A stretch of 64,000 nt of DNA, from the NCBI GenBank assembly GCA_947627955.1, contig CANQXZ010000001.1:120477-184476 (forward strand). Reading direction: 5' to 3'. Made by a program: the position numbers and the translations under genes. Source of the DNA: an uncultured Clostridia bacterium. Its GTDB lineage: Bacteria > Bacillota > Clostridia > Christensenellales > Borkfalkiaceae. Positions 11,757 to 56,709 of this stretch are shown here, one piece after another. Numbering within the stretch: position 1 is the stretch's first letter; each line of letters opens with the position of its first letter. The notes under the pieces are model-generated. The model saw only the letters and a program-made list of their open reading frames with translations, was not told the DNA's origin and did not search any database.

Positions 11757-11758
11757 AA

Positions 11759-38001: not shown

Positions 38002-38010
38002 TTTATCCTC

Positions 38011-41557: not shown

Positions 41558-41812
41558 TTATATATTTTTAGTGAAAAATGTTTCCAAACACTTCTGTAGG
41601 GAAGGACCATCCTCGTTAAAATCAACCTTTACCGGCGTGGTACCGACCTTGAACAGATATGGATTCTTTATTTGTGCCATAAACGATAAGACTCGTTCAA
41701 GAACCGGTCTTGATGTGTCTATATGAACGGTTCTTATGTCAACAAGATCATCTATTTGAATATCGCCAATGTCGAGCGACTTATAATATTCCAGTTTCCC
41801 ACTATCAATCAT
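41558..41812 (-). CDS. small conserved hypothetical protein often found next to serine recombinases (DUF6870-like, from memory)
   Basis: 84-aa ORF containing IKNPYLFKVGTTPVKVDF. The assignment rests on recollection only. Confidence 0.45.
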   Translation of the reverse strand: MIDSGKLEYYKSLDIGDIQIDDLVDIRTVHIDTSRPVLERVLSFMAQIKNPYLFKVGTTPVKVDFNEDGPSLQKCLETFFTKNI

Positions 41813-41862
41813 TAATTAAATTTTCGACTTTTTCAAAAAAAATAAACTTAAAGTTTACCTTT

Positions 41863-42468
41863 TTATTTGTCGTCTCCCACAATAGAAATCAATTCAAGCC
41901 AAAACTCAATATCTTTATTCGGTGCAGACCAAAGCCGGATAGAAAGTATATTTATAGCCTGCTCTCTGAGCCTGTAATAATGTCGTGAGGACAGATTTAA
42001 TCGGTATAGCAGCTCGTTATGGTTTAATGATTCGGGAGCGATGTATGTTAAATAGATAAGCTCGTAAAGACGTTCTCCCTCTTCCGGCTTCTTTTTTAAG
42101 ACGGTAAGCGCCTCGTTGACTCGGTCCAAAATCAATCTGGTTTTACGAATGCTTTCCATGCGGCTTTCGATTTTGCGATTTCCAAAAGTCATTTCAATAT
42201 CTAATCGCTCAATCATTTCATCAATGCCCTCGAATGGCTGTTCAAGCTCCTCAGCGACCGTTTCAGGGAAACACTCAATCATCCAAGCAATGTTTTTATA
42301 ATGTTTTAAAAGCAACTCGGTGTTATGAAACATGGTTTGCTGCTTCTTCATCTGAGCATCCCTTGCTTTTTTATCTTTTATATTTTTATCTGCCAGCATT
42401 CCTTGCTTGGTAAATAGCTGTAAAATCATTTCCTGTTGTGATATGTGTTGCTGAATCTCTTTGCCCAT
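41863..42468 (-). CDS. putative sigma region-4-like/ArpU-like HTH regulator
   Basis: 201 aa. The C-terminal ERLYELIYLTYI...LSSRHYYRLREQAINILSIRL resembles a sigma-70 region 4 HTH. Confidence 0.35.
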   Translation of the reverse strand: MGKEIQQHISQQEMILQLFTKQGMLADKNIKDKKARDAQMKKQQTMFHNTELLLKHYKNIAWMIECFPETVAEELEQPFEGIDEMIERLDIEMTFGNRKIESRMESIRKTRLILDRVNEALTVLKKKPEEGERLYELIYLTYIAPESLNHNELLYRLNLSSRHYYRLREQAINILSIRLWSAPNKDIEFWLELISIVGDDK

Positions 42469-42563
42469 AATACTGACTCCTTAAATTGTGGTTTCAAATG
42501 TAAAAACGAACTTATTTCTCTGCATCTAATTGCAAAGACAAAGGTAGTCAAATTACGACAAAT

Positions 42564-42755
42564 TCATATCTTAAATTTTGAGATGTTCTTGATGATATGC
42601 ATTAAGATGTGCTGTCGTAAGTCCTCATCAAGAACACCATTTATGCGAGAACTGCAATTTATAAGCGGTGCATACATTTTCAATATTTTCTCTATTGCAG
42701 AATGATCGCCATAGACAGCTTTCTCTAGAATCATCCTGAATTGCTGTTCGTTCAT
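42564..42755 (-). CDS. conjugative-transposon HTH protein (Tn916 orf8-like, HTH_16 type)
   Basis: Starts MNEQQFRMILEKAVYGDHSAIEKILKMYAPLI at the ATG at 42755, one nt after the sigma gene stop. The longer ORF-track start was discarded. Confidence 0.6.
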   Translation of the reverse strand: MNEQQFRMILEKAVYGDHSAIEKILKMYAPLINCSSRINGVLDEDLRQHILMHIIKNISKFKI

Positions 42756-42756
42756 T

Positions 42757-43146
42757 TTACAAATCCCCGCCAAACTTGTTTTTGAGTTCTTTAATTGCAA
42801 GAGAACGCAAATTATATACATGCTGGATTGAGCAATTCAACTCTTCAGCAACCTCATCGGGTGTCATATTATGTACGAACAGCAACTCCAATAATCTGCG
42901 GCGTTGTGGGGCGAGCTTTTTGAAGGCTGACGACAAAGTATGGTTATCGAACTGAAAGCCCTTTTGGAGGCTCTCAATGCCCGCAGGCGGCTCGCACACA
43001 AGCTTATCAGTTATTCGCTCGTCTTCAATTGAAACCTCGTTAGAATGCCTGTTAATCTGTCTGATGTAATCGATCTTGGCTCTCTTCACCACTACTTTCA
43101 TCCATGCCGTAAATCTGCACCGCAATGCATCACTGTTAAAGTCCAT
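42757..43146 (-). CDS. sigma-70 family (ECF-like, Tn916 orf7-like) sigma factor
   Basis: ATG at 43146 behind an AAGGAG RBS. Region 4 reads LAPQRRRLLELLFVHNMTPDEVAEELNCSIQHVYNLRSLAIKELK. Confidence 0.75.
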   Translation of the reverse strand: MDFNSDALRCRFTAWMKVVVKRAKIDYIRQINRHSNEVSIEDERITDKLVCEPPAGIESLQKGFQFDNHTLSSAFKKLAPQRRRLLELLFVHNMTPDEVAEELNCSIQHVYNLRSLAIKELKNKFGGDL

Positions 43147-43234
43147 ATTGATTGCTCCTTTTGGCGTAAATGCCGTCGGAAGCAATCTATTTATGAATTT
43201 GTGTGACTTCCGCCGGTTGCGGCCAAGTCAAAAA

Positions 43235-43297
43235 GGGCAAAAAAAGAGTTTGAGCATACGGAATAAGCCCCTTAAGGCTTAGCCCTGCTCAAACTCA
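43235..43297 (-). terminator. long branched hairpin plus T-run: intrinsic terminator or attenuator upstream of the sigma gene
   Basis: Minus strand has GAGTTTGAGCA ... TGCTCAAACTC (43297-43287 with 43256-43246) enclosing an inner AAGCC/GGCTT hairpin. It is followed by TTTTTTTGCCCTTTTTG. Confidence 0.65.
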
Positions 43298-43513
43298 TAC
43301 TCGTCGATTCACGGTTTCAGATCATATTGCAGATAGTTTATTTAATTTTTCGTATGTCGTATGTCTTAACTTATGTACACACACTCCTTATCCAGTCTTT
43401 CATGGCTTATGATTGTGCCTAAATATACTCAGCAATATCCGAGCGCATATGCACATCATACATGATTTATAATGACGAATTTTTAAATGCTTTGTAAGAT
43501 AAAAGCTTTTAAT

Positions 43514-43540
43514 GTAAAAAAGAGCACAATCCAGTGCTCT
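43514..43540 (-). terminator. rho-independent terminator ending the cargo operon
   Basis: AGAGCAC/GTGCTCT stem abutting the stop codon at 43541-43543, followed by TTTTTTAC on the minus strand. Confidence 0.75.
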
Positions 43541-43735
43541 TCATTCTTCATCCTTTGCTTTGCTGATAAGCTTTATGGTAACGCTACCATCTTGTATATT
43601 TAATAAATATCGCCTATGACATTTATCACATTTAATTACACCATCTACGATCACGGCTGCATGTATAAGCAATTTATCACATTTTGGGCAGTGTATATAA
43701 CTCTTGTCATCTGAAGGTGCAATAATGTGTTCCAA
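43541..43735 (-). CDS. cysteine-rich KTR-type zinc-ribbon protein (Tn916 orf6-like)
   Basis: 64 aa with CPKCDK...CDKCHRRY (two CxxC pairs), like the small KTR proteins next to tet(M) in Tn916-family elements. Confidence 0.65.
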   Translation of the reverse strand: MEHIIAPSDDKSYIHCPKCDKLLIHAAVIVDGVIKCDKCHRRYLLNIQDGSVTIKLISKAKDEE

Positions 43736-43778: not shown

Positions 43779-44699
43779 CTATTTTGATAATATAAACCTC
43801 ATTAGCATTGCTATTAATATAAAAATGAAGTTAGTAATAACCATAATGGGGAATAATATAACTAGCAGTAAAAATATAACACAACTGAAGATTATCGCTA
43901 CAGTCATTAACCCAATAATAGATAAATATAAAAAATACCTTTGAATTGAAAATAAGCGATATCCTCCAGCCATGCCAATATTGCTTTTCCCTAATGCAAA
44001 GTTCTCTGCCCATATACCATTAATGTATGACACAATCGTGGTCAAGTATCCTTTCATAGCCAGTGGGAATTCTGATAGTTTGGCAGTCATAGAAAAATCA
44101 AAGCTACAAAAAATGTTTGGTTTGCCAGAAAACGCCACTTTAAGATTCCTTATTGTTGCAACGATACCATAAAGAAGACAAACCAACAACATAAGCACAC
44201 AAAATAGCAGAATTAATAAAAAAGCCGTCCCAAAAAATGCAAGTAGTAACCCACCTTGAATAATAATGATAGCAAAAATAAGTGCTGTACCAAAGATAAG
44301 AGTTGCTGGTGCAACCATAAGCCACATCCATTTGCGGAACGATAATATTCGATAGCTGTGCGACTTAGTTACTGCATTACGTGCAATAACGAAGTTATCC
44401 AAAAATGCGTTTCTTGATGTCTCTTTATACAATGTAAACCATTTTAATAGAATTGTTGCAAAAACATTCCTTGCTGTTACTGTACCCAACCCTTTTGCTG
44501 CCGAAACAAAACTTTTAATATAGATGTAAATCGAATATGCTAATCCGACTGCAGCACCTATACTTAAAAAAATGATAAGACCTATATATCCGACATAAAA
44601 GAAAATTACAGCAAAAAAAGCGGCAAAAATAAGGAAAATAAGAAAACTTCCCAACACATCCACCATCGTTACTGCATACCCAGGTCTTCTCCAAATCAT
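43779..44699 (-). CDS. polytopic membrane protein, unknown function
   Basis: 306 aa with about 7 hydrophobic helices and no recognisable motif. Confidence 0.6.
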   Translation of the reverse strand: MIWRRPGYAVTMVDVLGSFLIFLIFAAFFAVIFFYVGYIGLIIFLSIGAAVGLAYSIYIYIKSFVSAAKGLGTVTARNVFATILLKWFTLYKETSRNAFLDNFVIARNAVTKSHSYRILSFRKWMWLMVAPATLIFGTALIFAIIIIQGGLLLAFFGTAFLLILLFCVLMLLVCLLYGIVATIRNLKVAFSGKPNIFCSFDFSMTAKLSEFPLAMKGYLTTIVSYINGIWAENFALGKSNIGMAGGYRLFSIQRYFLYLSIIGLMTVAIIFSCVIFLLLVILFPIMVITNFIFILIAMLMRFILSK

Positions 44700-44722: not shown

Positions 44723-45067
44723 CTAAAATAGTGCTTTTAAAATGCATTGATATTCGTCCACATCCACATTAATTAACGACTTTTTGCCATCCGTAAATTC
44801 AATTGAAATCATATATCGTTTGACTGTAGAGCTCGAAGAAACAGACGCAAACATCCCAACTGCCCCAAAAACAGCACCGCCGACCGCTCCTTTTAAAAGA
44901 GTCTTCCAAAATGGATGTGTTTCAATATCGTTAATGATTTCGTAATTAGCAATGTTTGTTTTATTGACTGCAATTCTTTTTAGGTGATGCATAAAAAAGA
45001 GTTTGTTTCTATATGCTATTACGTCATAATTTACATAGTCACCCGCTATAACTTTACTTTTGCTCAT
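44723..45067 (-). CDS. small protein with a glycine-zipper TM segment, unknown function
   Basis: 114 aa with a central GAVGGAVFGAVGMFASV segment. Confidence 0.5.
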   Translation of the reverse strand: MSKSKVIAGDYVNYDVIAYRNKLFFMHHLKRIAVNKTNIANYEIINDIETHPFWKTLLKGAVGGAVFGAVGMFASVSSSSTVKRYMISIEFTDGKKSLINVDVDEYQCILKALF

Positions 45068-45083
45068 TAATGTGCCCCAATAT

Positions 45084-46091
45084 CTACCAACATATAAAAA
45101 CCATCTTATCCTTTATTGAAATGGACATCTGCAATGATTTATCTGTTGCATTCAATACCATCTTGCAAGCATTACTAATGCTTTGCATTAACTCACTATC
45201 ATTTATTGGAATATGCGAATAAAAATTAAAAGAATGCTTATCTGCAATAATACTAGCCTTCAGCTCATGTTTGAATTCATACAGCGATGATATCGTTTTT
45301 TCGGTGTGAAGGCTATCAATATTGCTGGCTTGCATTTGTTGAGAGCAATGGCTCCAAGTAGAATCGCAACGTGGCGTAGTTTTTCTGTCCCATTGGTGAT
45401 TAACCGCAATCTCTTCGTCAGTATAATTTAAATACAAATAGCTAAATGGTTTATACTTTTTTAAGTTTGCACCGAGCATAAAAGTTGCATCAAGATGATA
45501 AGTTTTATTATCTATCCATACTATATTCCAAGAATGAGGTCCACTCATCCCAGTATTATTATCAGTTGCCTCGCCATTAACAACTATAGATTCAATTCCT
45601 ATCCAACTAAGAACTAGCTTAACGGCCTTTGCAATACCACTACATTGACCTTTATTACTAGCAAGAACCGATGCGGCATTCTGATTATATTGATTATTAA
45701 TTTCATAGGTTGTATGTTGAAGCACATAGTCACAAACGGTACACACCTTTTTATAGTCACTTACACCTTTGGGTATATATGTGATTATTTCTGATTTTAC
45801 CCTGTCAATTTCCGTATTAATATTCCTAATTTGAAGTCGGTTATAAATATTATGTATGATTAACTCTGTGCAAAAACCTTGTAACCCGAAGTGTTGTGAG
45901 ATTTGCGGATTGAAAGGTATATGATAAAGTTCAGGATGGTCATTGTTTATAGCGACATAGATTTCAGATATTTCATGCGGAGCAAGACCATTGCAAAATA
46001 CGTGCTCTTTATATTTAGAGAATGCCTCACACATGTTCTCGTAATATTTCCTCTGATTGAGCGTTAATTTCATTTTCCAATATTCTTGCAT
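45084..46091 (-). CDS. transglutaminase-like cysteine protease superfamily protein
   Basis: 335 aa. The Cys-His-Asp arrangement is GQCSGIAKAV, GPHSWNIVWI and YHLDATF. Confidence 0.75.
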   Translation of the reverse strand: MQEYWKMKLTLNQRKYYENMCEAFSKYKEHVFCNGLAPHEISEIYVAINNDHPELYHIPFNPQISQHFGLQGFCTELIIHNIYNRLQIRNINTEIDRVKSEIITYIPKGVSDYKKVCTVCDYVLQHTTYEINNQYNQNAASVLASNKGQCSGIAKAVKLVLSWIGIESIVVNGEATDNNTGMSGPHSWNIVWIDNKTYHLDATFMLGANLKKYKPFSYLYLNYTDEEIAVNHQWDRKTTPRCDSTWSHCSQQMQASNIDSLHTEKTISSLYEFKHELKASIIADKHSFNFYSHIPINDSELMQSISNACKMVLNATDKSLQMSISIKDKMVFICW

Positions 46092-46163: not shown

Positions 46164-47576
46164 CTATATTTTCCTGCCCCACTTGTTTTTTAAATTAATT
46201 GATGCACTGGCTTTATCAATAACCCATAGAATTGGATCCTCAACACCTACTGGCTTAAATGGACTTCCATCAGCCACATGGCCTAACGCACTACAGGTGA
46301 AGAACTGCATGCTTTTAAATTTTGATTTTAAACCATTTAAAAAGTTTTCCTCTTCATAATTAATTAAGAATTGTTCACAAACTCTATTTGTTGCTTCATA
46401 CGCAGAACTTATATGATTTAGTTGCATATAGTTTCGCACGGCAGTAGCACCAATTATTTCATCAAGTCCAGGTATATCGCATTTTGTAAATACTATAGCG
46501 ACATCAGCCTTAACAATGTTTTTGGATGTTAGGCAATGCATATTTTCAAGAGTTGTTATAAGTATACTTAATATATCGTCTAATTCATTTTCACTTGCAC
46601 CGTATTTAGAAAGATTTATTTTACGTTTTATTTCATTCCGATATTTGCGCACTGAAAGCGGATCAATAACTATTAAAAATGCATTCGCATATTTATATCC
46701 AATTTGTGAACCAATCTCTTTCAAGCTACCATAAGCTTCACCAGCTATATCGCATAACGAAATTAGATTATTTAACTTTTGCCCAGGTGGAGTTAAATAA
46801 AACTGATAATATTTTAATCTTAAATCTGCTGTTTTTATTGGCAATAAGCCTTTAGACATATTTAATTTAATATCATGAAAATCGTCATCGACTATTGTTG
46901 GATAACTAAAATCTAAACCATTAGGTTTTGAGGTTTTTTCAATTTGTGAAATAGCCATTCCAATAAAGCATGTCTTGCCAGCTTTTGCTCCTCCTATAAT
47001 TGGAATTAAAATTTCTTTATGTTTACCTCCATCTTTGAGTTTGGTTGAGCATTCAGGACAAATTGCAGTTAATTTTTGACGTCCGTTAAAAAAAGTTGTT
47101 GGAATTTTAGTCCCACATTGACATTTTCTTAGCAAAACGCCATATTTACTCGGACTTAAATTGCTATGAATTACCCCACATTTAGGACACGAATATGCCG
47201 GAAGGTTTAGTTTGCGTTGGCAAATTGGGCAAAATGACTCAATACCTATAGCTTTGCAATAAATTAAATCAACTAAATGCAAGATTAGACTTGCTAAAAT
47301 TGTGAATAGAGAGGCAACTGCTCCCCCTAATAAAGTAATTGAAAAAAAACTTATAAAGATTACTAGCAAAAATAGTGTTATTATAGAAAAAACTGGGATA
47401 TCACAAATTATTGATAAAATTACAATAAACGCATTATCACTAAATGTATCCTTAAATCTATTTACTTCATTTACAAATGGTTTAAATATTTTTTCTAATG
47501 ATAATTTAATTTTATTGTATGTATTAATGTAAAAATCACCAAGGAAATAATTATTATGCGCCGGTTGTATTTTCAT
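46164..47576 (-). CDS. membrane-anchored double-zinc-ribbon P-loop GTPase (paralog 2)
   Basis: 470 aa with N-terminal TM helices and CPICQRK..CPKCG..CQCG..CPECS ribbons. G1 is GGAKAGKT (46997-46968 region), G3 DIAGE, G4 TKCD and G5 CSALG. Confidence 0.75.
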   Translation of the reverse strand: MKIQPAHNNYFLGDFYINTYNKIKLSLEKIFKPFVNEVNRFKDTFSDNAFIVILSIICDIPVFSIITLFLLVIFISFFSITLLGGAVASLFTILASLILHLVDLIYCKAIGIESFCPICQRKLNLPAYSCPKCGVIHSNLSPSKYGVLLRKCQCGTKIPTTFFNGRQKLTAICPECSTKLKDGGKHKEILIPIIGGAKAGKTCFIGMAISQIEKTSKPNGLDFSYPTIVDDDFHDIKLNMSKGLLPIKTADLRLKYYQFYLTPPGQKLNNLISLCDIAGEAYGSLKEIGSQIGYKYANAFLIVIDPLSVRKYRNEIKRKINLSKYGASENELDDILSILITTLENMHCLTSKNIVKADVAIVFTKCDIPGLDEIIGATAVRNYMQLNHISSAYEATNRVCEQFLINYEEENFLNGLKSKFKSMQFFTCSALGHVADGSPFKPVGVEDPILWVIDKASASINLKNKWGRKI

Positions 47577-47586
47577 ATATCACCCA

Positions 47587-49032
47587 CTAATACTTTTTCT
47601 TTACACTAATAATATAATTAATCACACCGTAAGCAATAAGGGATAGAACAATAGCCCCTAAAATAATCCATACCCAAATCATTGTATCGAAAATTTCTAA
47701 ACTGCTAGAAAAATATGGTGTAGGATACCCATGTGATGTATCTTTCCAATTTGCAAAAGATTTTGGTAAATCAGTGCTAGTTACATTCTGCTCAGGCAAG
47801 GTATATATCCCTTCTACTTCGTTTGAATTATTGCCAATAATATTGCAACTGCTAGGCACTATATAGCAGTCGCTGAACTGAGCGGAATCAACAAAAGCAG
47901 TTAACTCCCCAACATACCTTAAACATTTGCCGTTTGATATTCCGGAGCATTCAGCATATACTAAACATGAATTAATAGTTGAATTTTTTACTCTACCAAC
48001 CAAGCCTCCTATTACTTGAAATGGTGTTCCACAGAGAGATGTTTTGGTTAAATCTGATTGTACTCTGCTTCCATAGGTGACACAGTTCTCAATTATTCCA
48101 TCCTCAGAATATCCAACAATACCACCACACAATGTTCCAAATGCACTTTTACCTGATACCCCATCCCCAAAAACGCTAAATCTATTTTTTAAGTAAATAG
48201 ATTGATCTATTATCGAATTATCAATTCCATTGTAATATTCACAACCAGAAATTAAACCTCCTTTATTTAGCCCAACAAGTCCACCAATATAAATATTGCT
48301 AACTGACCTATTACCTCCCATTACTATATCTTCTCGGATACCGGCATTCCATGCTTGATAACAATTTATAATGCTACAATTTAAAATCTCATTATAGTTA
48401 TAGCCAGCAATTATTCCAAAAGCGTTCGTTGAGCTGTTGGAAAAATTGAATTCACAAGATTCAAATCGCAAATTACAAATTTTTCCGTAATTGGAGCCAA
48501 CCAAGCCAAAACCCGAACTAGAATCTTTAACATTTGAAATTTTAAGATTTTTTATTGTATGTCCGTTGCCATCAAAAGTCCCATAATAATTCTGCAATTG
48601 TCCTAACCACGTGGGATTTTGCCCTTCAAAATCAATGTCGCTTTCTAAACAGTAATCTAATTTATCAGCATACGGTAAATTGCAAATTACATTAAATTCT
48701 TGAGAAGACTTAATATAAATTGTCCGCTTAGGAATTGTAGTTAAGCATATTATCATCATTGCAATAGCTATTAGAGTCAAAACTATAGTTGAGATAAACA
48801 TTATGATTTCTACTATGCCTTCACGGTCACTTGTATCCGGGAAAAAAGTAGCGGATAAATAAAATATAACCATACCAATAATCAATACAACACTTACTGG
48901 TATGAATATCCCTAAGATTCCACCAAAATGAATGCCTCCAAAAATTAGCGCAGGGCGAACCAAAGCAATTGCCATAACTATTATCATAGCAATAGGTGGA
49001 ATTAAAAATAGTTCTTTAATAGTCTTGATCAT
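47587..49032 (-). CDS. membrane protein with GLUG-repeat ectodomain
   Basis: 481 aa with about 3 N-terminal TM helices and one C-terminal TM helix. Five GLUG-like repeats: GLVGSNYGKICN, GIIAGYNYNEILNC, GGLVGLNKGGLISGC, GGIVGYSEDGIIENC and GGLVGRVKNSTINSC. Confidence 0.7.
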   Translation of the reverse strand: MIKTIKELFLIPPIAMIIVMAIALVRPALIFGGIHFGGILGIFIPVSVVLIIGMVIFYLSATFFPDTSDREGIVEIIMFISTIVLTLIAIAMMIICLTTIPKRTIYIKSSQEFNVICNLPYADKLDYCLESDIDFEGQNPTWLGQLQNYYGTFDGNGHTIKNLKISNVKDSSSGFGLVGSNYGKICNLRFESCEFNFSNSSTNAFGIIAGYNYNEILNCSIINCYQAWNAGIREDIVMGGNRSVSNIYIGGLVGLNKGGLISGCEYYNGIDNSIIDQSIYLKNRFSVFGDGVSGKSAFGTLCGGIVGYSEDGIIENCVTYGSRVQSDLTKTSLCGTPFQVIGGLVGRVKNSTINSCLVYAECSGISNGKCLRYVGELTAFVDSAQFSDCYIVPSSCNIIGNNSNEVEGIYTLPEQNVTSTDLPKSFANWKDTSHGYPTPYFSSSLEIFDTMIWVWIILGAIVLSLIAYGVINYIISVKKKY

Positions 49033-49055
49033 ATATTTTTCTTATGGATTGTTAG

Positions 49056-50531
49056 TTATATTTTTCTGCCCCACTTCTTTTTTAGATCAATAGAAGCACT
49101 TGCTTTATCAATAAGCCACAATGCTGGCTCTTCAACACCATCAGGATTAAATTGACTGCCATTTTCAACGTGACCTAGCGCACTGCATGTAAAAAATTGA
49201 ATACTTTTAAATTTAGACTTTAAGCTATTTAAGAAGTTATCCTCCTCATATTCAATCAAAAACTGCTCACAAACTTTATTTATGGCCTCATACTTTGATT
49301 TCATATTATGAATTTGCATATACTTGCGTATAGCTTCATTACCGATTTTTTCATCAAGCCCAGGAATATCGCATTTTGTAAATACAACAGCAACATCTGT
49401 CTTAATCATGTTCTTTGGCGTTAGGCAATTCATATTTTCTAGCGTTTTAATAAGTACATCAAGTACTTCATCCATTCCGCGTTCGCTAGCGCCATATTTA
49501 GATAAACTAATTTTACTTTCAACTTCATCTCTATACCTTCTTAAAGAAAGCGGATCTACGACCATAAGGAAGGCATTTGCATATTTATAACCGATTTGTT
49601 TTCCAATCTCGCTATTGCTTTCATAGGCTTCACCTGCGACATCGCAAATAGATATTAAATTTTTTACCTTTTCTCCGTGGGGTGTAAGATAAAACTGATA
49701 ATATCTCATTCTTGTATCGTTAGTTTTTTCAGGTAGTCTACCGTCACCCATATTACGTTTATTGTTCTCATAATCATCACCTAAAGCCAAATTAGGTTTA
49801 TACTCAAAGTCCAACCCATTTTCGGAAGCATTTTTTTCGATTTGAGAAATTGCCATGCTAATATAACACGTTTTCCCGGCACTTGGTCCCCCAACAACAG
49901 GAATGGGAATATCTACTTGAAGCGGACCACCGAGCTCATATCCACACTTTGGACATACCCATTTACCAGATTGTTTGTGCCTGCCATTAAAAAATGTAGT
50001 TTTAAGTTTGCGACCACATTCACATTCACGCCTTAAAACTCCATATCTGCTAGGAGCAAGTAAAGAATGTTTTGCGCCACAAGTGCATATGTATGCTGGC
50101 AAAGCATATCTTTCTTGACAATTAGGACAACTTGTCGAAATTTTTTTAATACTTCTGTAAATCCAATCAAAAAACGCAATGATTAAGTATAAAATATAAA
50201 ATATTGTCATGAAAATCAGCAACACAATAGCTTGTACAACAGAAATAATTGCACAAGGAACTGGTGTTAAGATAGTGCTTAACAATAGCCAACCGAAGGA
50301 TAGCCCAAACATAAACATGGCCGCAACAGCTTTAAAAAAGCTAGCGAAAGGTTCATATAATGTGACAACATTTTTTACATTTCTTCCTAGTTTTCTTAGA
50401 GCTGATAAAACTGAATATGCACTTTTACTGATTATTCTGCCACACTGGATAAAAGTATTTGCAATTGTCTTTCCAAATTCTATATATCCATCTCTAAAGA
50501 AATAATTAATTTTTGCTGGCTGCTTTTCCAT
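49056..50531 (-). CDS. membrane-anchored double-zinc-ribbon P-loop GTPase (paralog 1)
   Basis: 491 aa with N-terminal TM helices and CPNCQER..CTCG..CECG..CPKCG ribbons. G1 is GGPSAGKT (49895-49866), G3 DVAGE, G4 TKCD and G5 CSALG. Confidence 0.75.
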   Translation of the reverse strand: MEKQPAKINYFFRDGYIEFGKTIANTFIQCGRIISKSAYSVLSALRKLGRNVKNVVTLYEPFASFFKAVAAMFMFGLSFGWLLLSTILTPVPCAIISVVQAIVLLIFMTIFYILYLIIAFFDWIYRSIKKISTSCPNCQERYALPAYICTCGAKHSLLAPSRYGVLRRECECGRKLKTTFFNGRHKQSGKWVCPKCGYELGGPLQVDIPIPVVGGPSAGKTCYISMAISQIEKNASENGLDFEYKPNLALGDDYENNKRNMGDGRLPEKTNDTRMRYYQFYLTPHGEKVKNLISICDVAGEAYESNSEIGKQIGYKYANAFLMVVDPLSLRRYRDEVESKISLSKYGASERGMDEVLDVLIKTLENMNCLTPKNMIKTDVAVVFTKCDIPGLDEKIGNEAIRKYMQIHNMKSKYEAINKVCEQFLIEYEEDNFLNSLKSKFKSIQFFTCSALGHVENGSQFNPDGVEEPALWLIDKASASIDLKKKWGRKI

Positions 50532-50550: not shown

Positions 50551-50862
50551 TTATATGTACATTAAAACTAGTCTGTAAATTTCGTAAGCAACAGGGGCAA
50601 TAATTGCCAAAACAACTAACCCTATCACAATAAATAAGGCTACTTTCATATAAATATTACTTACGCTATGATTAATTCCAACCACACTATTTTTAATGGC
50701 GGAAACTAATCCGACAAAAATGCTTATAAACAAACCTATTACAAGTGATCCAACAAAAACCACTACTACGGTTGCAATTAGTATTGCTAATATTTGCAAC
50801 CCTAAGTACAGGAAGAATAATCCTCCTAGACAGCTACCTACTCCATCATCATCATCTGACAT
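50551..50862 (-). CDS. small three-TM membrane protein with acidic N-terminus
   Basis: 103 aa, MSDDDDG followed by three hydrophobic helices. Its start lies 5 nt downstream of the stop of the 894-aa gene. Confidence 0.5.
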   Translation of the reverse strand: MSDDDDGVGSCLGGLFFLYLGLQILAILIATVVVVFVGSLVIGLFISIFVGLVSAIKNSVVGINHSVSNIYMKVALFIVIGLVVLAIIAPVAYEIYRLVLMYI

Positions 50863-50867
50863 AATTT

Positions 50868-53552
50868 TTACTCCTTATTATTTTTATTAAATATTTTTTC
50901 AAAGAAACTCATATGTTCCTTTAAATATTTATCAATGAAATTTTTTACTTTAGGCAAATCCGGTTCTGATATTAGTTCACATATCTTTTTAAAAAGCTTC
51001 TTATAATCTCCTCTACTTAAAGTATCTACATATTTTGAAACAAAAAATATAAGATTACTTGCTAATCTATCGTTCACATTAAAGGCATACGCAAAAATAT
51101 CAGCTAAAATTTCGTAATATTCTTTGTTGCTTAGCTTTTCAAGTGGATTTAATATTGCCGCTATTGAACCATTAAGATATGATATCGGCCTTTCAAAAGT
51201 AGCTCTTAATAGTGTGTTGCTCTTGTATCCTTTTTCCTTATATTCGCAATACAGTTGCAATATATCAATAAAATAATTTGAAATGAACTGTTCCAATTGA
51301 AAATCATTAAGCCAAGAATACAGAGTATTCTGTTTTATACAATTGGTTAACAGATCTTCACCCAATTTTCCTCTTACAAGTAATATTGTCCGTAAGATAG
51401 AATAATTGTCTGGAATCTTAAAATGTGCATCACGCAACCTTACGTTTAACTCATTTATGCTACGTAAATAAGTAGGAGCATAATTAATTAGCTCTTCCAT
51501 TGATAATGAAAAAATCTCCTGATTTAAGTAATCTAAAATCAAAATCATATCAGCAAAAGAATTCTCAAAATCTTTTAATTGATCGTAGAATTTTATACTT
51601 TCGGCTATTTTATCTTTTCCTTTAAGATTACCAAGATATAATTTTATTTTTTGTATATATATGCCACTATCATATCCAGTTCGATAATATTTATTAAAGT
51701 AGCTATCTAATGAGCGGAAATTAACCTTTGTTGCGGTTTTAAAAACATAAGCTTCTTTCCGGAATAAGAAATCTCTAAAATCATTCTTTTCTTTATTAAG
51801 GTTCTCTACACTTTCAAATAAGCTCTTATATATGTCTGAATACTTTATATATAAATCCATGAAATTTGCATTTCGCATATTATTGCTGATAAATGTAGTT
51901 ATCAAGTGTGTCTTTTCTTGTTCATTTTCTAGTGAACATATAACGCTGAAAGCAAATTCCATCGACTTTACATCTGAAATTTGGCATTTTACAAAATCGC
52001 CTAAAGCGTTCATAATTAACCAATTTAATGCTTTGTCGCCTAACTGTTTAGCGCAATTCAAATATAATTTGAATTCTTCCAAGGATCTATGAGTAATGGA
52101 TTTTCGAATTATTTTATCCATTAACATATATGCTTTATTGTTTTCCGCTTCACTCAAATTTAATGCAATCGAATTTACCAATGCATCAAAGACATAATAT
52201 AGTTCATTTGTGCCGTTTCGAGCCTCAATGTATCTTTCCCATTCAGAATTGTTTACAACCATTAAGGAATAATCATTCCAAGGGAACGGAGCCTTATTCT
52301 TAATTTCAGCTAAGCTTGATTGTGGAGTGCCCGAATATATATTTACGCCAAAAAGCGTCAACTCGGAAAAATAACGATTCATTATTGAATCTTTTATATA
52401 TCGGTCGGAAAAATCGTAAGTAAATTTTATGAGCGAGAGAATTTCATTCCCTTTACCCCACTTCCCAGAAATGATTACTTCATTATAAAGATTAAAAGCA
52501 ATTTCTTTTTCATTAATATAATGATATTTCAAAGCAATTTCTAAAGCTGATGAATATTCCGACGCACCTGTGAACCACCTGAAGTTTTTCTGATTTAAAT
52601 AATAAACCGCCAATGCTATATCAATATGGCATTGTGTCATTGCTATTATATTGTTTACCGACTCTATTTTCTTTAAAATGGCAAATAAAGTCGATGACTC
52701 AAGTGACTGCATAACATCGTTTATATATCTACCTAATACTAATTTTGAACATATTTTCTTTTCAAAATTAAAAACAATGTTTCCTGCCGCAAGTTCATCT
52801 TGGTAGTTAAATGTTGAACCAATCATGCTTGCAAATATATTTCGAATTTTAATGGGCGGCATGCCTGTAGTTGTTAGGGTATAATCCAGCTGAGTAGAAT
52901 ACTGCGTACAAAAAGTTGCATCATTAAAATAACTTGCAGGCAAAAGTGTACCTATAATGGCATAGAGTAGTCTGATATTTTCTTCCGTGTCATTAAAAGT
53001 AATCCTATCTAATGAACCATGTGTATTTATCACCGCTTGCAATAAAGATGCTATATCTTGTTTATATCCACCAAAAGCAAGTTTTTTAATTGCTTCTTCA
53101 CTTGCAATACTTTGTGTATTTAATTCAATAGGTGGAAGCGATGCGGGAGCAGGATCATCGTGCCATTCTTTATATGAGAGACTTGATTTAAATGCTTTAT
53201 GTTCAAAAATGCAATAAGGATTAAACCCTTGTAATTCATCAAATATAAAAGCGTGAATGATGAAGTTTCCGTTACGGCTATCTTGATCGCTATAAACTTT
53301 GCCAATATAGCTTGATTGCGCGACACAACGTCTCCCAGACGAAAGAATAAAATAGGCATACTTCTTTGGGAAAAAGGCCTTAATTTCCTCATCTGTTGGT
53401 TCATATGGCGCATTTGGAGCCTTTTTATAGGACATAAGTTTGATAATTTCATCACATTCTGATTTTGTGACATTGTCAGATTTTGCCCATACACTAAATG
53501 CTCCGGATTTATCTTTTCCACAAGCCGTATAAATCATTTGATAGGCTAACAT
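50868..53552 (-). CDS. large all-helical protein, N-terminus resembling GTPase-associated protein 1 (GAP1)
   Basis: 894 aa behind an AAGGAG RBS. MLAYQMIYTACGKDKSGAFSVWAKS follows the QxxYTSxxxGxxGxxGFQxxAxS-type opening I associate with GAP1-N domains. This comes from memory of a motif, not a search. It lies directly downstream of a Zn-ribbon GTPase. Confidence 0.45.
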   Translation of the reverse strand: MLAYQMIYTACGKDKSGAFSVWAKSDNVTKSECDEIIKLMSYKKAPNAPYEPTDEEIKAFFPKKYAYFILSSGRRCVAQSSYIGKVYSDQDSRNGNFIIHAFIFDELQGFNPYCIFEHKAFKSSLSYKEWHDDPAPASLPPIELNTQSIASEEAIKKLAFGGYKQDIASLLQAVINTHGSLDRITFNDTEENIRLLYAIIGTLLPASYFNDATFCTQYSTQLDYTLTTTGMPPIKIRNIFASMIGSTFNYQDELAAGNIVFNFEKKICSKLVLGRYINDVMQSLESSTLFAILKKIESVNNIIAMTQCHIDIALAVYYLNQKNFRWFTGASEYSSALEIALKYHYINEKEIAFNLYNEVIISGKWGKGNEILSLIKFTYDFSDRYIKDSIMNRYFSELTLFGVNIYSGTPQSSLAEIKNKAPFPWNDYSLMVVNNSEWERYIEARNGTNELYYVFDALVNSIALNLSEAENNKAYMLMDKIIRKSITHRSLEEFKLYLNCAKQLGDKALNWLIMNALGDFVKCQISDVKSMEFAFSVICSLENEQEKTHLITTFISNNMRNANFMDLYIKYSDIYKSLFESVENLNKEKNDFRDFLFRKEAYVFKTATKVNFRSLDSYFNKYYRTGYDSGIYIQKIKLYLGNLKGKDKIAESIKFYDQLKDFENSFADMILILDYLNQEIFSLSMEELINYAPTYLRSINELNVRLRDAHFKIPDNYSILRTILLVRGKLGEDLLTNCIKQNTLYSWLNDFQLEQFISNYFIDILQLYCEYKEKGYKSNTLLRATFERPISYLNGSIAAILNPLEKLSNKEYYEILADIFAYAFNVNDRLASNLIFFVSKYVDTLSRGDYKKLFKKICELISEPDLPKVKNFIDKYLKEHMSFFEKIFNKNNKE

Positions 53553-53600: not shown

Positions 53601-54716
53601 TTATTTTTTAACTGTCTGAATATAGTGATTTTCCGCTAATAACCATAAAAGCGGATCCAGAACGCGCCTAGGATTAATCTTGTTACCTGATAGCTTTGTC
53701 CCATTAGGAACACCTCCTAGTGCCGTCAAGCCAAAGAACGCATATTTTTCAAACTGCTTCATTTGCTGCACAAGCTCGGCATCCAGCCAGTTTTCCAAAA
53801 GATCTTGCATTTCAATATTGACGCTCTCGAAATCTGTTTCAACAAATACCCCACGCGCAAGATGTTCTGATTCCGAATGTAAACAACTATCTTCCTTTAA
53901 AAGATTGTACTGTTCCAACGCATCTATTTTTGTGAATGCCAAAGCAAGAGGAATCTTAATGGTTCCTCGTATATTCTTTACATCTCTGATATTTTGGACT
54001 ATTCGACTCAGAACTTCAACAACATCTGTATTTTGTGGAGGAAGCGACATTTTACCCTGAAGCTTCTCTCTAATTGTTGATACTTGCAAAGGATCAAGCA
54101 ACAAAATGATACCATCAGCATTAGGAATATAACGATTATTGACTAGCATATCATCGGTGGAGTCAAGATTTTCACCTGCAGTATCATAAAAGGACAATGC
54201 TGCCACTTTTTTAATATGATTATTTTTGTCCATAAAGCGCAAAGGAAAAATCAACGGAGGGACGTCATCTTGACTTGTGGCGTCAACTACAGAACCGTGT
54301 TTAAAAAGCGGCTCATAATAGTGGTCATTATAATACTGCCGAGACTCCTCACTACTAGCTAAACTTAAGGTACAATTAAAACTAGACGTCATCTTTCGCT
54401 TAATTTCGTTGATAAGTACGCCTATGTAATTGGACTTGCCGGAAGCCTTCGCACCAAGTAGCGCAACAGACAAGCTCTCTTCATTAAGAAAATCAGATGG
54501 AATTTCTTTATTAACAACACTGCAAAATACTGACTTTCGAGCATCTTTGCATTTCATGCATTTTTGCTTATCTTTATTTGGAATCCAGCCAGCTGCATCT
54601 TTGACTACGGTTGAAATACACTTATCGGGTTTCCCGGGAACATTATATGAGCATTTCAAACCACTGGAAATAATGTCATGCTTACCGTAACAATATGGAC
54701 ACGTAAATTTTTTCAT
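53601..54716 (-). CDS. soluble zinc-ribbon P-loop GTPase (TRAFAC-like motif order)
   Basis: 371 aa with CPYC...C...C...CMKC ribbons. G1 is GAKASGKS (54455-54432), G3 YDTAGE, G4 TKID and G5 LTALGG. Confidence 0.8.
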   Translation of the reverse strand: MKKFTCPYCYGKHDIISSGLKCSYNVPGKPDKCISTVVKDAAGWIPNKDKQKCMKCKDARKSVFCSVVNKEIPSDFLNEESLSVALLGAKASGKSNYIGVLINEIKRKMTSSFNCTLSLASSEESRQYYNDHYYEPLFKHGSVVDATSQDDVPPLIFPLRFMDKNNHIKKVAALSFYDTAGENLDSTDDMLVNNRYIPNADGIILLLDPLQVSTIREKLQGKMSLPPQNTDVVEVLSRIVQNIRDVKNIRGTIKIPLALAFTKIDALEQYNLLKEDSCLHSESEHLARGVFVETDFESVNIEMQDLLENWLDAELVQQMKQFEKYAFFGLTALGGVPNGTKLSGNKINPRRVLDPLLWLLAENHYIQTVKK

Positions 54717-54738: not shown

Positions 54739-55479
54739 TTATCGATTAACTGATTGGACCCATTGACGATCTCGCTTATTTTCTTCATCTTGTGCCTGAA
54801 TTTCTTCTTCAGTAGCACCTCTTTCTCTCATACTTTCGATTTTTTTATCTCCCTGATATTTAATCAAGTCAATCTCATCTTGCTTCACTTGCTTTGTATA
54901 TTTCTCTGAAGCAATTCTATCTTCATCACTGATACTTTTGCCTTTGGCTTCACGTTCCGCTAATTTTTCATTGATTTTATTTCGCATATCAATGTCATGC
55001 GATTGCAAATCAACTTTTTCTTGATGAACAGTATCTCGAAATTCAATCCCTTCTTCCTTCATCTGATAGCTTAGCTGCTCTTGTGATGCAATATTTTTTT
55101 CATATTGCGCTCTTAATGAGTCAAATGTCTTTGAATCACCACGTTCAACAGCTTTTGCCATATCTCTAGAAATAGCCTCATTTTTTGCATCAAGCTGCTC
55201 ATAAGCCTGCTTTTTTTGTTCGCCGAAAAATTGAAGCCTTTGCTGATTATTCATATCCCACATCTTACTTTTTTGTTCATCAATCGCCATTTCAGCTTTT
55301 TCGTAATCGCGGGAATTGGGGTCTATTTTTTTTAGTTCCTCTTCCTGTGCCTCAATATTTTTTTTATAATCTTGAGTGGCCGCATATGCTTCCGGAGCAT
55401 TACGGCTAGCCATGGCAGAGTTCCAACGTCTCTCATATATTTCGGAATATTTCTGATATTCTTTCATCTTATTTGTCAT
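54739..55479 (-). CDS. highly charged coiled-coil protein, unknown function
   Basis: 246 aa, rich in K, E, Q and D throughout. No TM helices or enzymatic motifs. Confidence 0.6.
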   Translation of the reverse strand: MTNKMKEYQKYSEIYERRWNSAMASRNAPEAYAATQDYKKNIEAQEEELKKIDPNSRDYEKAEMAIDEQKSKMWDMNNQQRLQFFGEQKKQAYEQLDAKNEAISRDMAKAVERGDSKTFDSLRAQYEKNIASQEQLSYQMKEEGIEFRDTVHQEKVDLQSHDIDMRNKINEKLAEREAKGKSISDEDRIASEKYTKQVKQDEIDLIKYQGDKKIESMRERGATEEEIQAQDEENKRDRQWVQSVNR

Positions 55480-55491
55480 ACAACAATCTCC

Positions 55492-56691: not shown

Positions 56692-56709
56692 GCTTCCACC
56701 GTTTTGTAC

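Follow-up and report, generated by a model that had tools for sequence, protein, structure and literature searches.

The operon that encodes the two membrane GTPases and the GLUG surface protein of the window (the whole stretch of 64,000 nucleotides analysed here) belongs to the HSP70/J-domain theme of GAP1-N2 GTPase-centric conflict systems (Kaur et al., 2020), and its surface protein comes from a large interchangeable set united by a conserved membrane anchor. The operon is assigned to this family because each of the three GTPases matches Pfam DO-GTPase2 (PF19993) above threshold, as the 894-aa protein does PF20013, and because an HSP70-vWA fusion and a J-domain protein are present; it matches the HSP70-theme GAP1-N2 system in sections 27–29 of that study (PMC7159879). 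GTPase-based conflict systems were predicted computationally (Kaur et al., 2020), and as we found no experimental work on any DO-GTPase system in the literature, a role in defence or conflict is likewise predicted. No PADLOC model matched the GTPases, GAP1 or the proteins of the variable slot. mGTPa, the GLUG protein and mGTPb are members of a single, tightly packed operon of about 20 kb and 15 genes, which runs on the minus strand from 43779 to at least 63988, with nine intergenic gaps of 10–72 nt each from TM103 (50551) to TM306. The features are as follows:

62006–63988, minus strand: HSP70 ATPase-vWA fusion, first gene of the operon, N-terminus truncated by the window end
58870–61977, minus strand: J-like/zinc-ribbon protein, 1035 aa (profile search against PDB, Pfam DZR)
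54739–58829, minus strand: optional inserted module of four proteins (PF10412, 136 bits; PADLOC mad8, 4e-17)
53601–54716, minus strand: sGTP, soluble core DO-GTPase2, 371 aa (PF19993, 35.8 bits)
50868–53552, minus strand: GAP1 (GTPase-associated protein 1) with GAP1-N2 N-terminal domain, 894 aa (PF20013, 57.9 bits, cutoff 24 bits)
50551–50862, minus strand: TM103, small polytopic membrane protein directly before mGTPa, 103 aa (hydropathy)
49056–50531, minus strand: mGTPa, core membrane-anchored DO-GTPase2, 491 aa (PF19993, 54.5 bits, cutoff 27 bits)
47587–49032, minus strand: GLUG protein in the variable slot, 481 aa (AF2 model, Foldseek, repeat count)
47590–47679, minus strand: NY anchor of the GLUG protein, residues 452–481, ...WVWIILGAIVLSLIAYGVINYIISVKKKY
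46164–47576, minus strand: mGTPb, accessory membrane-anchored DO-GTPase2 paralog, 470 aa (PF19993, 41.7 bits)
45084–46091, minus strand: transglutaminase-like thiol enzyme, cytoplasmic, 335 aa (PF01841, 38.3 bits)
44723–45067, minus strand: uncharacterised conserved protein, 114 aa (homologs at the same position in related loci)
43779–44699, minus strand: TM306, polytopic membrane protein and candidate membrane effector, last gene of the operon, 306 aa (hydropathy)
37678–41468, minus strand: three tandem serine-recombinase genes (ORFs, Pfam Resolvase)

Near 38 kb the GC content drops from ~0.50 to ~0.35, and the serine recombinases lie at the edge of the low-GC island. This serine-recombinase island, in a genome of the gut Clostridia type, carries the operon as cargo. 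A recombinase is likewise found downstream of the system in three related loci (L003, L004, and L041).

Both membrane GTPase genes are present at the coordinates given by the preliminary description, on the minus strand, and the architecture proposed for them holds. mGTPa and mGTPb have in common a two-helix membrane hairpin, four Cys pairs apiece that form two zinc ribbons, and a GTPase domain of the TRAFAC class in which the G motifs are intact, namely G1 (GGPSAGKT at 214 in mGTPa, GGAKAGKT at 195 in mGTPb), Walker B/G3 (DVAGE at 297, DIAGE at 276), G4 (TKCD at 385 and 364), and CSALG (at 449 and 428). Exactly 47 of their last 59 residues are identical, as had been counted, and pairwise alignment gave 57% identity over the full length, compared to 25% between sGTP and mGTPa. 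By hydropathy and an AF2 model (pLDDT 82) mGTPa has a single TM hairpin (helices 61–88 and 90–128) preceded by an amphipathic helix. Its N-terminus carries a conserved QPAxxNYFF peptide, D122 is the sole invariant residue of the hairpin region (residues ~61–128), and the zinc ribbons (C135–C196) are followed by a TRAFAC G domain (residues ~205–491) whose closest solved folds are Ras, Rab, and EF-Tu at 10–15% identity. mGTPa is not a chance feature, because it has 320 homologs at E ≤ 1e-5 and its family comprises 2762 representatives at 50% clustering. Both proteins are membrane-tethered with zinc ribbons and G domains in the cytoplasm, again as proposed. The third paralog, sGTP, has two N-terminal zinc ribbons and is soluble as predicted, but it is more than the "cytoplasmic member" of the set: its gene lies directly upstream of GAP1 and it is the core GTPase before GAP1 in essentially every locus. 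sGTP and mGTPa are a conserved "double GTPase" pair on either side of GAP1. mGTPb forms a separate clade with ~470-aa orthologs from L001, L007, L011, L015, and L018; this accessory paralog is ancient and moves together with the contents of the variable slot. G motifs and Cys pairs are retained family-wide. The preliminary description had named a strain-specific duplication with one decaying copy as a refutation; this objection fails, since the two copies arose long ago and neither has lost its integrity.

The remaining components are conserved to different degrees. Homologs of the HSP70-vWA protein (PF00012, 290 bits, matched from profile position 88; PF00092, 71 bits) are 696–716 aa long and stand first in the operon in most of the loci that contain the gene, e.g., L008 and L011. 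The 1035-aa protein has a J-like domain without HPD (residues 176–243; E 1.6e-4 to J-domains in a profile search of PDB) and a double zinc ribbon (residues ~316–362), followed by a helical region; its C-terminal half is beta-rich and FNIII-like and matches FN3-like chains at E ~0.1 only. The optional module consists of a 259-aa protein, a soluble TrwB/VirD4-like ATPase (56710–58053), a degenerate 399-aa paralog of this ATPase, and a 246-aa charged protein; it is present in L003–L006, L016, L021, L038, L039, L041, L043, and L044 and absent from L001, L007–L014, and others. Residues C150, H186, and D201 of the transglutaminase-like enzyme are conserved in at least 90% of 22 homologs. The 114-aa protein has homologs at the same position in L005–L008, L013, L021, L038, L042, and L043, and homologs of TM306 terminate the operon in most loci.

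Among about 40 related loci, in which ORFs were called crudely as longest ORFs, gene order is conserved around a hypervariable slot. In nearly all of them mGTPa is preceded by GAP1 and then a small TM gene (TM103 homologs of 86–99 aa occupy the same position in many), then come 0–8 slot genes, and the conserved gene of the transglutaminase-like enzyme closes the slot. The membrane proteins encoded in the slot have ectodomains that are unrelated to one another: in the window a GLUG beta-helix, in other loci PPC repeats, C-type lectins and others. The GTPase-ectodomain-GTPase sandwich does not represent the conserved unit, as many loci have mGTPa only and others have adjacent GTPases, three GTPases, or 1–8 ectodomain genes. 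The functional link between membrane GTPase and ectodomain protein that had been proposed is supported by neighbourhood and fusions, but the self-contained three-gene signalling unit is not, the genes being parts of a ~20 kb operon. In each of the 11 loci examined, an mGTPb-type paralog adjoins a membrane-anchored ectodomain protein (GLUG, PPC, or C-type lectin). A membrane-anchored variable protein of at least 300 aa lies beside the mGTPb-type gene in 7/7 loci, compared with 1/11 of the loci that have mGTPa only (Fisher p = 2.5e-4, treating loci as independent and ignoring phylogenetic non-independence). All four of the loci fetched later (L042–L045) fit the association, and L045 carries a stand-alone PPC-mGTPb-4TM cassette among housekeeping genes. 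In four relatives (P0229, P0246, P0287, and P0270) a TM helix links the GTPase itself to a fused beta-helix, PEGA, CBM96, or SH3 domain (a Rosetta stone).

The middle protein has TM helices at both ends and GLUG repeats as described, with three helices at the N-terminus (2–25, 37–63, and 70–98) and one at the C-terminus (445–479), although six repeats (G[GF][LI][VI]G...C) rather than five were counted. Between the helices lies a GLUG-type right-handed beta-helix (104–440; AF2 pLDDT 77.6), matched by Foldseek to the GLUG beta-helices of IgA1 proteases, 3n6z (E 3e-7) and 7uvl. The match to Pfam Glug is below threshold (13.6 bits, cutoff 20.5); remote homologs carry PF07581, which supports the identity, and only 3 close homologs were found among 5.8e9 proteins. 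By hydropathy, analogy and the positive-inside rule, an extracellular location of the GLUG domain is most likely, as had been proposed. Domains of the GLUG, PPC, and lectin types are characteristic of secreted proteins; in the PPC analogs, Sec signal peptides with AxA sites are combined with an identical type of C-terminal anchor, and the topology of the GLUG protein agrees with that of 4-TM relatives in L018 and L023. The basic segment KRTIYIK right after TM3 is a weak argument against this location.

The anchor common to slot proteins with unrelated ectodomains, here called the NY anchor, reads W-x14-G-x2-N-Y followed by basic residues, the TM helix ending in G-x-[IV]-N-Y-[IV] before Lys/Arg (G-V-I-N-Y-I and KKK in the GLUG protein). 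Thirty-four instances in a TM context were found among variable proteins of related loci, with 3.3 K+R and 0.3 D+E in the residues that follow, and the bitopic class shows no variation at W, G, N, and Y. The motif, derived from L001–L034, is present in every bitopic (two-ended) slot protein of the later L042–L045 and in some multi-TM ones. The neighbours of mGTPb always include membrane proteins with this anchor. It is also contained in the 61–65 aa equivalents of TM103 in L008, L012, and L030, and a search with nothing but the anchor profile retrieved a protein that is encoded in another DO-GTPase/GAP1 operon.

Outside-in sensing by membrane GTPase and ectodomain protein is plausible because mGTPb always lies beside ectodomain proteins and relatives fuse the GTPase to extracellular domains. 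We give an even chance to a scheme in which swappable ectodomain inputs signal via the membrane GTPases to an sGTP-GAP1 switch and an output arm. The ectodomains would be interchangeable receptor modules outside the membrane, and the NY anchor of each would dock onto the TM hairpin of a membrane GTPase; D122 would lie at the same depth on the cytoplasmic face as the N-Y pair, and it is tempting to speculate that the two pair. A ligand at the envelope (phage, foreign cell-surface material, or wall damage) may then change the nucleotide state of mGTPb or mGTPa, and the signal would pass to the sGTP-GAP1 switch and free the HSP70-vWA/J-protein assembly, the transglutaminase-like enzyme, and TM306. 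The output would probably restrict spread of the invader at a cost to the cell. The ectodomain module is dispensable for the core because many loci lack both slot protein and mGTPb, which fits an accessory input and, just as well, an accessory output. Detection of phage adsorption or of a mating pair, as suggested by the preliminary description, would be one candidate function, the data being compatible with sensor, effector, and display roles alike.

It is unlikely, though conceivable, that the locus is a machine for sorting and display of surface proteins without any sensing, where W-TM-GxxNY-KKK is a C-terminal sorting signal, tripartite like LPXTG or PEP-CTERM signals, and the GTPases, HSP70/J chaperones, and transglutaminase-like enzyme insert, position, process, or cross-link a shifting set of adhesin-like proteins. 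Many ectodomains unrelated to each other indeed have one anchor in common, and several of them come with Sec signal peptides and a TCxxCG stalk; chaperone components are encoded in the operon, the gene at the end of the slot in most loci encodes a conserved thiol enzyme whose C/H/D triad is intact, and the Lys-rich tails and invariant Gln (Q4) in the GTPase N-terminus might suit a transglutaminase. On the other hand the whole machine including this enzyme occurs without an anchored substrate nearby in L006, L008, L012, L014, L020, and L021, the enzyme has neither signal peptide nor TM helix, a membrane sortase-like protein is absent, multi-TM slot proteins have the motif in TM1 and not at the C-terminus, and relatives with an ectodomain-GTPase fusion require no sorting.

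Similarly improbable is that the ectodomain proteins are outputs, sensing being cytoplasmic, e.g., by the FNIII/J protein or the TrwB-like ATPase, and the membrane GTPases deploying or rearranging surface proteins that mask receptors, block adsorption, or mediate exclusion. Sensing has been placed in the FNIII component, with variable TM components as likely effectors (Kaur et al., 2020; PMC7159879), slot variability is typical of effectors, and exclusion would fit a mobile element. However, GLUG, PPC, and lectin domains are binding modules without enzymatic or pore-forming features, the SH3, PEGA, and CBM domains on fused GTPases are more receptor-like than weapon-like, and conserved candidate effectors are already there (the transglutaminase-like enzyme and TM306).

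Self/non-self (kin) recognition, in which polymorphic ectodomains bind surface molecules of neighbour cells and signal via the GTPases in social rather than anti-phage conflict, has a low probability. GAP1-N2 systems are strongly enriched in multicellular or aggregating organisms (Table 1, PMC7159879), and lectin-like, PPC, and beta-helix ectodomains differ among close strains; yet the hosts are gut Clostridia metagenome-assembled genomes for which a multicellular habit is not known, the element is horizontally mobile across phyla (Treponema, Fibrimonas, Anaeroplasma, gammaproteobacteria), and a toxin/immunity pair is not evident. That the locus is a conjugation or mating-pair apparatus, with the ATPase (TrwB_AAD_bind/T4SS-DNA_transf) as coupling protein and the surface proteins as mating adhesins, is suggested by this ATPase within an operon on a serine-recombinase island but is very improbable, as the ATPase lacks a TM anchor, falls far short of every NCBIfam coupling-protein cutoff (86 vs 521 bits, and similar) and is missing from L001, L007–L014, and other loci, the operon has no relaxase, VirB4, or other T4SS genes, and mGTPb cassettes also occur among housekeeping genes (L045).

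With regard to rates of change, sGTP and TrwB are 77–86% identical in closer related loci, sGTP being among the slowest-evolving components. GAP1, the transglutaminase-like enzyme, and the TM proteins are 31–61% identical between loci (GAP1, conserved in position in all loci, 34–55%), and slot contents are swapped outright. Slow sGTP and TrwB against fast GAP1 and TM proteins and replaced slot contents may be the signature of an arms race. The near-identical strains L003 and L004 differ in repeat number.

The genes around the two membrane GTPases have, as predicted from their products, the composition of a GTPase-centric system of the GAP1-N2 type with an HSP70 theme. Kaur, Burroughs, Iyer and Aravind (eLife 2020; PMC7159879) defined this theme by computation and predicted that DO-GTPase/GAP1 systems are immune-like conflict systems. 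The DO-GTPase/GAP1 family is already known in silico, and a literature search found no experimental studies of these systems. The genes of the operon are as follows.

62006-63988: HSP70 (PF00012, 290 bits) fused to a vWA domain, the gene being cut by the window end
58870-61977: 1035-aa J/zinc-ribbon protein
54739-58829: inserted module with a TrwB/VirD4-like ATPase
53601-54716: soluble DO-GTPase2 paralog, sGTP, 371 aa
50868-53552: 894-aa GAP1-N2 protein, GAP1
50551-50862: small TM gene, 103 aa
49056-50531, minus strand: membrane GTPase mGTPa, 491 aa
47587-49032, minus strand: GLUG protein, 481 aa
46164-47576, minus strand: membrane GTPase mGTPb, 470 aa
45084-46091: transglutaminase-like thiol enzyme, followed downstream by a 114-aa protein and a 306-aa polytopic membrane protein

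The nine intergenic gaps from the 103-aa TM gene to the 306-aa gene measure 10-72 nt each, so that these genes form a single operon running from 43779 to at least 63988. The unit put forward in the preliminary description, i.e., two membrane GTPases and the ectodomain protein between them, was drawn too small; the operon is larger.

The window has in common with the GAP1-N2/HSP70 theme the paralogous TRAFAC GTPases with a Walker B Glu and N-terminal zinc ribbons, the GAP1-N2 protein directly 3' of a GTPase, the HSP70 gene, the J-domain fused to a large beta-rich protein, the variable TM-containing components and the mobile, patchy distribution. It differs in having three GTPases, an HSP70 fused to vWA, a J-domain without HPD, no GrpE that could be found, and ectodomains that are separate proteins with a common anchor. 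GrpE was absent from the window proteins and from the Pfam lists of the related loci, the window itself ending within HSP70-vWA. GAP1 matches GAP1-N2 (PF20013) at 57.9 bits (cutoff 24) and lies immediately downstream of sGTP, an order kept in essentially all related loci. The J-like domain, residues 176-243 of the 1035-aa protein (61249-61452), matches DNAJA3, Sis1 and DnaJ in a profile search (E 1.6e-4 to 5e-3) and lacks the HPD tripeptide in the window sequence and the 14-sequence family consensus alike, which makes canonical stimulation of the partner HSP70-vWA ATPase doubtful. In the published theme the corresponding component is a protein of rapidly evolving FNIII repeats fused to a DnaJ domain or TPR. 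The 1035-aa protein carries a double zinc ribbon, and its C-terminal half is beta-rich, with Pfam fn3 absent and a weak FN3-chain match (E~0.1) to the 14-sequence profile. The thiol enzyme, whose C150/H186/D201 triad is kept in at least 90% of 22 homologs, the 306-aa membrane protein and the optional TrwB-like pair belong to the window system, and PMC7159879, as far as searched, makes no mention of them for such systems. No NCBIfam model matched the GTPases, GAP1 or the GLUG protein; likewise no PADLOC model matched the GTPases, GAP1 or slot proteins, the TrwB-like ATPase alone matching the mad8 and HerA models.

All three GTPases belong to the DO-GTPase2 family (Pfam PF19993, cutoff 27), with 54.5 bits for mGTPa, 41.7 for mGTPb and 35.8 for sGTP. 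The membrane paralogs are 57% identical to each other, and sGTP is 25% identical to mGTPa. The reported identity of 47 of the 59 C-terminal residues between mGTPa and mGTPb was reproduced exactly, and GxxxxGKT, D[VI]AGE, TKCD, CSALG and the four Cys pairs are present in both. Across the three proteins the Walker B Glu motif reads DVAGE, DIAGE and DTAGE, with G1 as GxxxxGK[ST] and G4 as TKCD and TKID; among the DO-GTPase2 family members checked, DxxGE is retained in 41/42 and G1 in 40/42. The eight zinc-ribbon cysteines (C135, C138, C149, C151, C170, C172, C193 and C196) are invariant (n=30 sequences), and D122 is the sole invariant TM residue of the hairpin. In the AF2 model of mGTPa (pLDDT 82) an amphipathic helix precedes a TM hairpin (helices 61-88 and 90-128), after which come small zinc-ribbon units of beta structure and the G domain. 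Among solved folds, Rho, Rab, Ras, EF-Tu and G-alpha come closest (10-15% identity); the fold search with this model returned only generic small GTPases and EF-Tu and no closer solved structure, and a PDB sequence search with mGTPa found no relatives. At E<=1e-5 mGTPa has 320 homologs, and the family has 2762 representatives at 50% clustering. The homologs come mainly from herbivore-gut Clostridia metagenome-assembled genomes and further from Treponema, Fibrimonas, Anaeroplasma and gammaproteobacteria. A scan of viral contigs with the GTPase alignment found no relatives, and there is thus no evidence of a phage-borne system.

Gene order was compared in about 40 related loci. The conserved order is HSP70-vWA, J/zinc-ribbon protein, optional TrwB module, sGTP, GAP1, small TM protein and mGTPa, followed by a variable slot of zero to eight genes, the transglutaminase-like enzyme, the 114-aa protein (some loci) and the 306-aa membrane protein. 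The arrangement of two GTPases bracketing a surface protein, first thought to be the functional unit, is also found in L001 (with three PPC proteins between mGTPa and mGTPb), L007, L018 and L043. The two GTPases are adjacent in L011 and L022, three GTPases are found in L017 and L043, an extra GTPase lies 3' of the last operon gene in L038 and L043, and cassettes occur without a nearby GAP1 operon in L015, L023 and L045. A fixed sandwich is rejected on this variation, and the layout in the window is, judged from gene order, incidental. In the region L043:16925-21004 the extra gene encodes a third membrane GTPase of 461 aa; the 1359-aa protein after it combines a double zinc ribbon with LRR repeats and Flg_new domains and is in part 52% identical to the J/zinc-ribbon protein. 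The orphan cassettes in L015 and L023 occur in genomes that bear the core operon on another contig (L009, L014). The L045 cassette (8081-13577) has feoB, leu and ilv housekeeping genes around it and no GAP1 close by, and consists of a signal-peptide PPC protein with the common anchor, an mGTPb-type GTPase and a 4-TM 697-aa protein with N-Y in TM1.

It is mGTPb that is linked to the slot proteins. Genes of the mGTPb type adjoin membrane-anchored variable proteins in 7/7 loci, as against 1/11 mGTPa-only loci (Fisher p=2.5e-4, a value uncorrected for phylogeny), and four loci retrieved afterwards (L042-L045) fit this association. Orthologs of mGTPb, about 470 aa long, form a separate clade in the GTPase tree and keep the G motifs and Cys pairs, so the duplication is old and has been maintained. 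A strain-specific duplication with one decaying copy, which would have spoken against the preliminary description, is contradicted by the tree and the motif integrity and is rejected. Two loci were matched in a metagenome scan with mGTPb.

The slot partners belong to mutually unrelated families, namely bitopic proteins with a Sec signal peptide and PPC repeats, bitopic C-type lectin proteins, multi-TM GLUG-type proteins (the window protein, six paralogs in L018 and two in L023), 4-TM proteins with a C-terminal domain of about 550 aa, and multi-TM proteins of about 206-231 aa. In the AF2 model of the window GLUG protein (pLDDT 77.6) three TM helices lead into a beta-helix at 104-440, and a further TM helix closes the C-terminus. 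GLUG-type repeats are indeed present between the GTPases, their number being six GLUG-like repeats rather than the five first counted. Pfam Glug (PF07581) is below threshold on this protein (13.6 bits vs 20.5, E 0.095) and is carried by its remote homologs (E 1e-8 to 1e-4). A PDB sequence search found no relatives, and Foldseek placed the model with IgA1-protease beta-helices at probability 1.00 (3n6z, E 3e-7; 7uvl; 7uvk). These share the right-handed beta-helix, the GG[LI]VG...N/C repeats and an extracellular setting, whereas the window protein is embedded in the membrane at both ends, has no protease domain and is 17-18% identical. Among viral structures, GLUG-type beta-helices were found in giant viruses and siphoviruses, which decides nothing about a decoy or receptor role. 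In the PPC analogs the signal peptides look cleavable, which places their ectodomains outside and their Lys-rich tails inside, and the homologous orientation of the anchor would then place the window GLUG domain outside as well. From hydropathy and this analogy we infer that the domain is probably extracytoplasmic; the basic N-terminus of the window protein and the one extra N-terminal helix with N-Y in 4-TM relatives are consistent with this.

Most slot proteins, i.e., all bitopic and many multi-TM ones, share a TM helix that ends on its cytoplasmic side in G-x-[IVF]-N-Y-[IV] followed by Lys/Arg, here called the NY anchor. In the window GLUG protein it occupies residues 452-481 (47590-47679) and reads ...YGVINYIISVKKKY. 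The anchor was seen 34 times in a TM context, the following residues holding on average 3.3 K+R vs 0.3 D+E. Bitopic proteins without exception keep W, G, N and Y (W-x14-G-x2-N-Y) and usually have a TCxxCG stalk before the helix, and in multi-TM slot proteins the motif is in TM1 with the same out-to-in orientation. The motif occurs in L001, L004, L007, L011, L015, L018, L023, L026, L027 and L042-L046; having been defined on L001-L034, it was recovered in all bitopic and some multi-TM slot proteins of L042-L045. A 62-aa anchor-region profile gave at least three short matches among 5.8e9 proteins in a search that was limited by its word index and is not a census, and one protein found by this profile alone lies in another operon of sGTP, GAP1, membrane GTPase and transglutaminase, followed by lectin and PPC genes. 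Matches outside TM helices are almost confined to the QPAxxNYFF N-terminus of the membrane GTPases and the N-terminus of the J/zinc-ribbon protein. The former peptide is nearly invariant (residues 1-12; 50496-50531 in mGTPa and 47541-47576 in mGTPb). In the latter, N19-Y20 (NYFIAFK) is invariant (window 61906-61977, residues 1-24). The sequence and distribution of the NY anchor suggest that its use is universal, for docking or for sorting.

The membrane GTPases of the window have one two-helix hairpin each and end in a soluble KWGRKI tail without a C-terminal TM helix, whereas PMC7159879 describes, for systems with two GTPases, four N-terminal TM helices and one C-terminal in one of the pair. 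More distant family members, P0229 among others, do possess the C-terminal helix. Up to the G domain they are built alike, with the N-terminal xPAxxSYFF peptide, hairpin and zinc ribbons, and they continue with the C-terminal TM helix and an extracytoplasmic domain, which is a right-handed beta-helix in P0229, PEGA in P0246 and P0254, CBM96 in P0287 and SH3 in P0270. This agrees with the fusions of membrane DO-GTPases to SH3, PEGA and beta-sandwich domains described in PMC7159879. In the window lineage, by contrast, the ectodomain and its TM helix are encoded apart from the GTPase and carry a conserved anchor of their own, so that one GTPase can have several interchangeable partners. The arrangement has the appearance of a split fusion, the ectodomain having moved to an exchangeable gene of its own.

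On the reading that we favour, with about even odds, the ectodomains would be exchangeable extracellular inputs, each docking through the NY anchor on the hairpin of a membrane GTPase, where D122 would lie at the same membrane depth as N-Y. Signals would pass to the sGTP-GAP1 switch and on to the outputs, i.e., HSP70-vWA/J, the thiol enzyme and the membrane protein. It is tempting to speculate further, with less confidence, that the operon encodes a modular receptor-to-G-protein system, in which GLUG, PPC, C-type lectin and other receptors share mGTPb as their dedicated GTPase through the universal NY anchor. Binding outside the cell would then change the nucleotide state inside, and this would gate the GAP1/HSP70/thiol-enzyme response. 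New specificities would come from exchange or duplication of the anchored ectodomain genes. Eukaryotic receptor-to-Ras/G-alpha signalling likewise links a binding domain outside the cell, by one TM pass, to a TRAFAC GTPase switch tethered to the membrane. This is an analogy only, at 10-15% G-domain identity; the window GTPase is anchored by its own TM hairpin, and no GEF or GAP homologs are recognisable. The idea of envelope-associated sensing in the preliminary description agrees with the published prediction and, as far as sequence comparison goes, with the new comparative evidence.

Secreted proteins that are otherwise unrelated may carry a C-terminal signature, a hydrophobic helix and a basic tail, as in the LPXTG/sortase, PEP-CTERM/exosortase and GlyGly-CTERM/rhombosortase systems. 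The NY anchor resembles such sorting signals in its tripartite C-terminal layout, its occurrence on many unrelated secreted proteins and its clustering with a dedicated system, and the operon might thus serve to sort or display NY-anchored proteins of the surface. We consider this rather unlikely. The N-Y signature lies at the cytoplasmic end of the helix and not, as in sorting signals, at the outer end; it is also found in TM1 of multi-TM proteins; and a sortase-type membrane enzyme is lacking, there being no match to sortase, exosortase or rhombosortase in the operon, where the sole thiol enzyme is cytoplasmic.

If the anchor couples ectodomains to the GTPase switch, as in the receptor-to-G-protein reading, this would be a new principle of bacterial transmembrane signalling and a plug-in route to recognition specificities; if it is a sorting signal, gut Firmicutes would have a surface-protein display system of a new class. 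Either way, a large set of genes now called 'hypothetical' on the mobile islands of gut Clostridia would gain a function. DO-GTPase/GAP1 systems are widespread, as the 2762 membrane-GTPase representatives at 50% identity attest, and the window is a compact, intact example whose comparison makes the 2020 prediction experimentally tractable. It names an accessory GTPase (mGTPb), a short anchor motif (W-x14-G-x2-N-Y-basic), natural swap variants and natural fusions, from which contact partners and orientation can be predicted. The mGTPb lineage, the NY anchor on swappable ectodomains and the tail of thiol enzyme and membrane protein are, as far as searched, absent from the published description.

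The components of the operon differ greatly in their rate of divergence.

Identity of operon components in related loci to their counterparts in the window
sGTP: 77-86% in closer loci (64% in L008)
TrwB-like ATPase: 82-86%
mGTPa: 56-77%
306-aa membrane protein: 33-61%
GAP1: 34-55%
Thiol enzyme: 31-52%
Slot contents: entirely replaced

Ectodomains in such a slot might also be outputs or exclusion factors instead of inputs, which we likewise regard as improbable. Kin recognition, as another role for variable surface proteins, seems less probable still. The variability pattern and the island location are circumstantial with regard to the predicted conflict or defence role of the GAP1-N2 system. 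Arrays of 4-9 NY-anchored genes of C-type lectin, GLUG-like and PPC types follow the thiol enzyme in L044 (13451-21364) and L046 (7928-16887), some being fragmentary (80-177 aa), including lectin genes in L046. Diversity-generating retroelements classically target C-type lectin folds, and no reverse transcriptase was found in the retrieved flanks of these arrays. The near-identical strains L003 and L004, with identical mGTPa, differ by about 281 bp inside the 381-bp tandem repeats of a PPC slot gene (L003:11464-13153 vs L004:11464-13434), which splits the PPC ORF in L003; either repeat number in the slot varies between strains or the gene is decaying.

A part in conjugation, to which the TrwB/VirD4-like ATPase could point (ATPase-domain Pfam, 136 bits), is very improbable and a conjugation-apparatus reading is rejected, since the gene is optional among loci and falls far below the cutoff of every NCBIfam coupling-protein equivalog (best 86 vs 521). 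The module that carries it lies between the J/zinc-ribbon gene and sGTP, and occurs in about a third of related loci with 82-86% conservation. It comprises the soluble ATPase, with an intact Walker A and no TM helix evident on reading of the sequence, a 399-aa degenerate ATPase paralog and charged proteins of 246 and 259 aa. In loci without the module a divergent soluble GTPase-like gene of 345 aa, 24% identical to sGTP, is found between sGTP and GAP1 (L001:5944-6981).

The operon lies in a low-GC block (0.30-0.39 vs about 0.50) that starts near 38 kb beside three serine-recombinase genes. These are in tandem at 37678-41468 (107, 570 and 582 aa), the block being at least 26 kb long, and genes for a sigma-70 region-4 protein, DUF6870 and small zinc ribbons lie between them and the operon (41558-43735). 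The recombinase edge looks like one end of an integrated mobile element whose other end is beyond the window. The identical locus is found in three metagenome assemblies.
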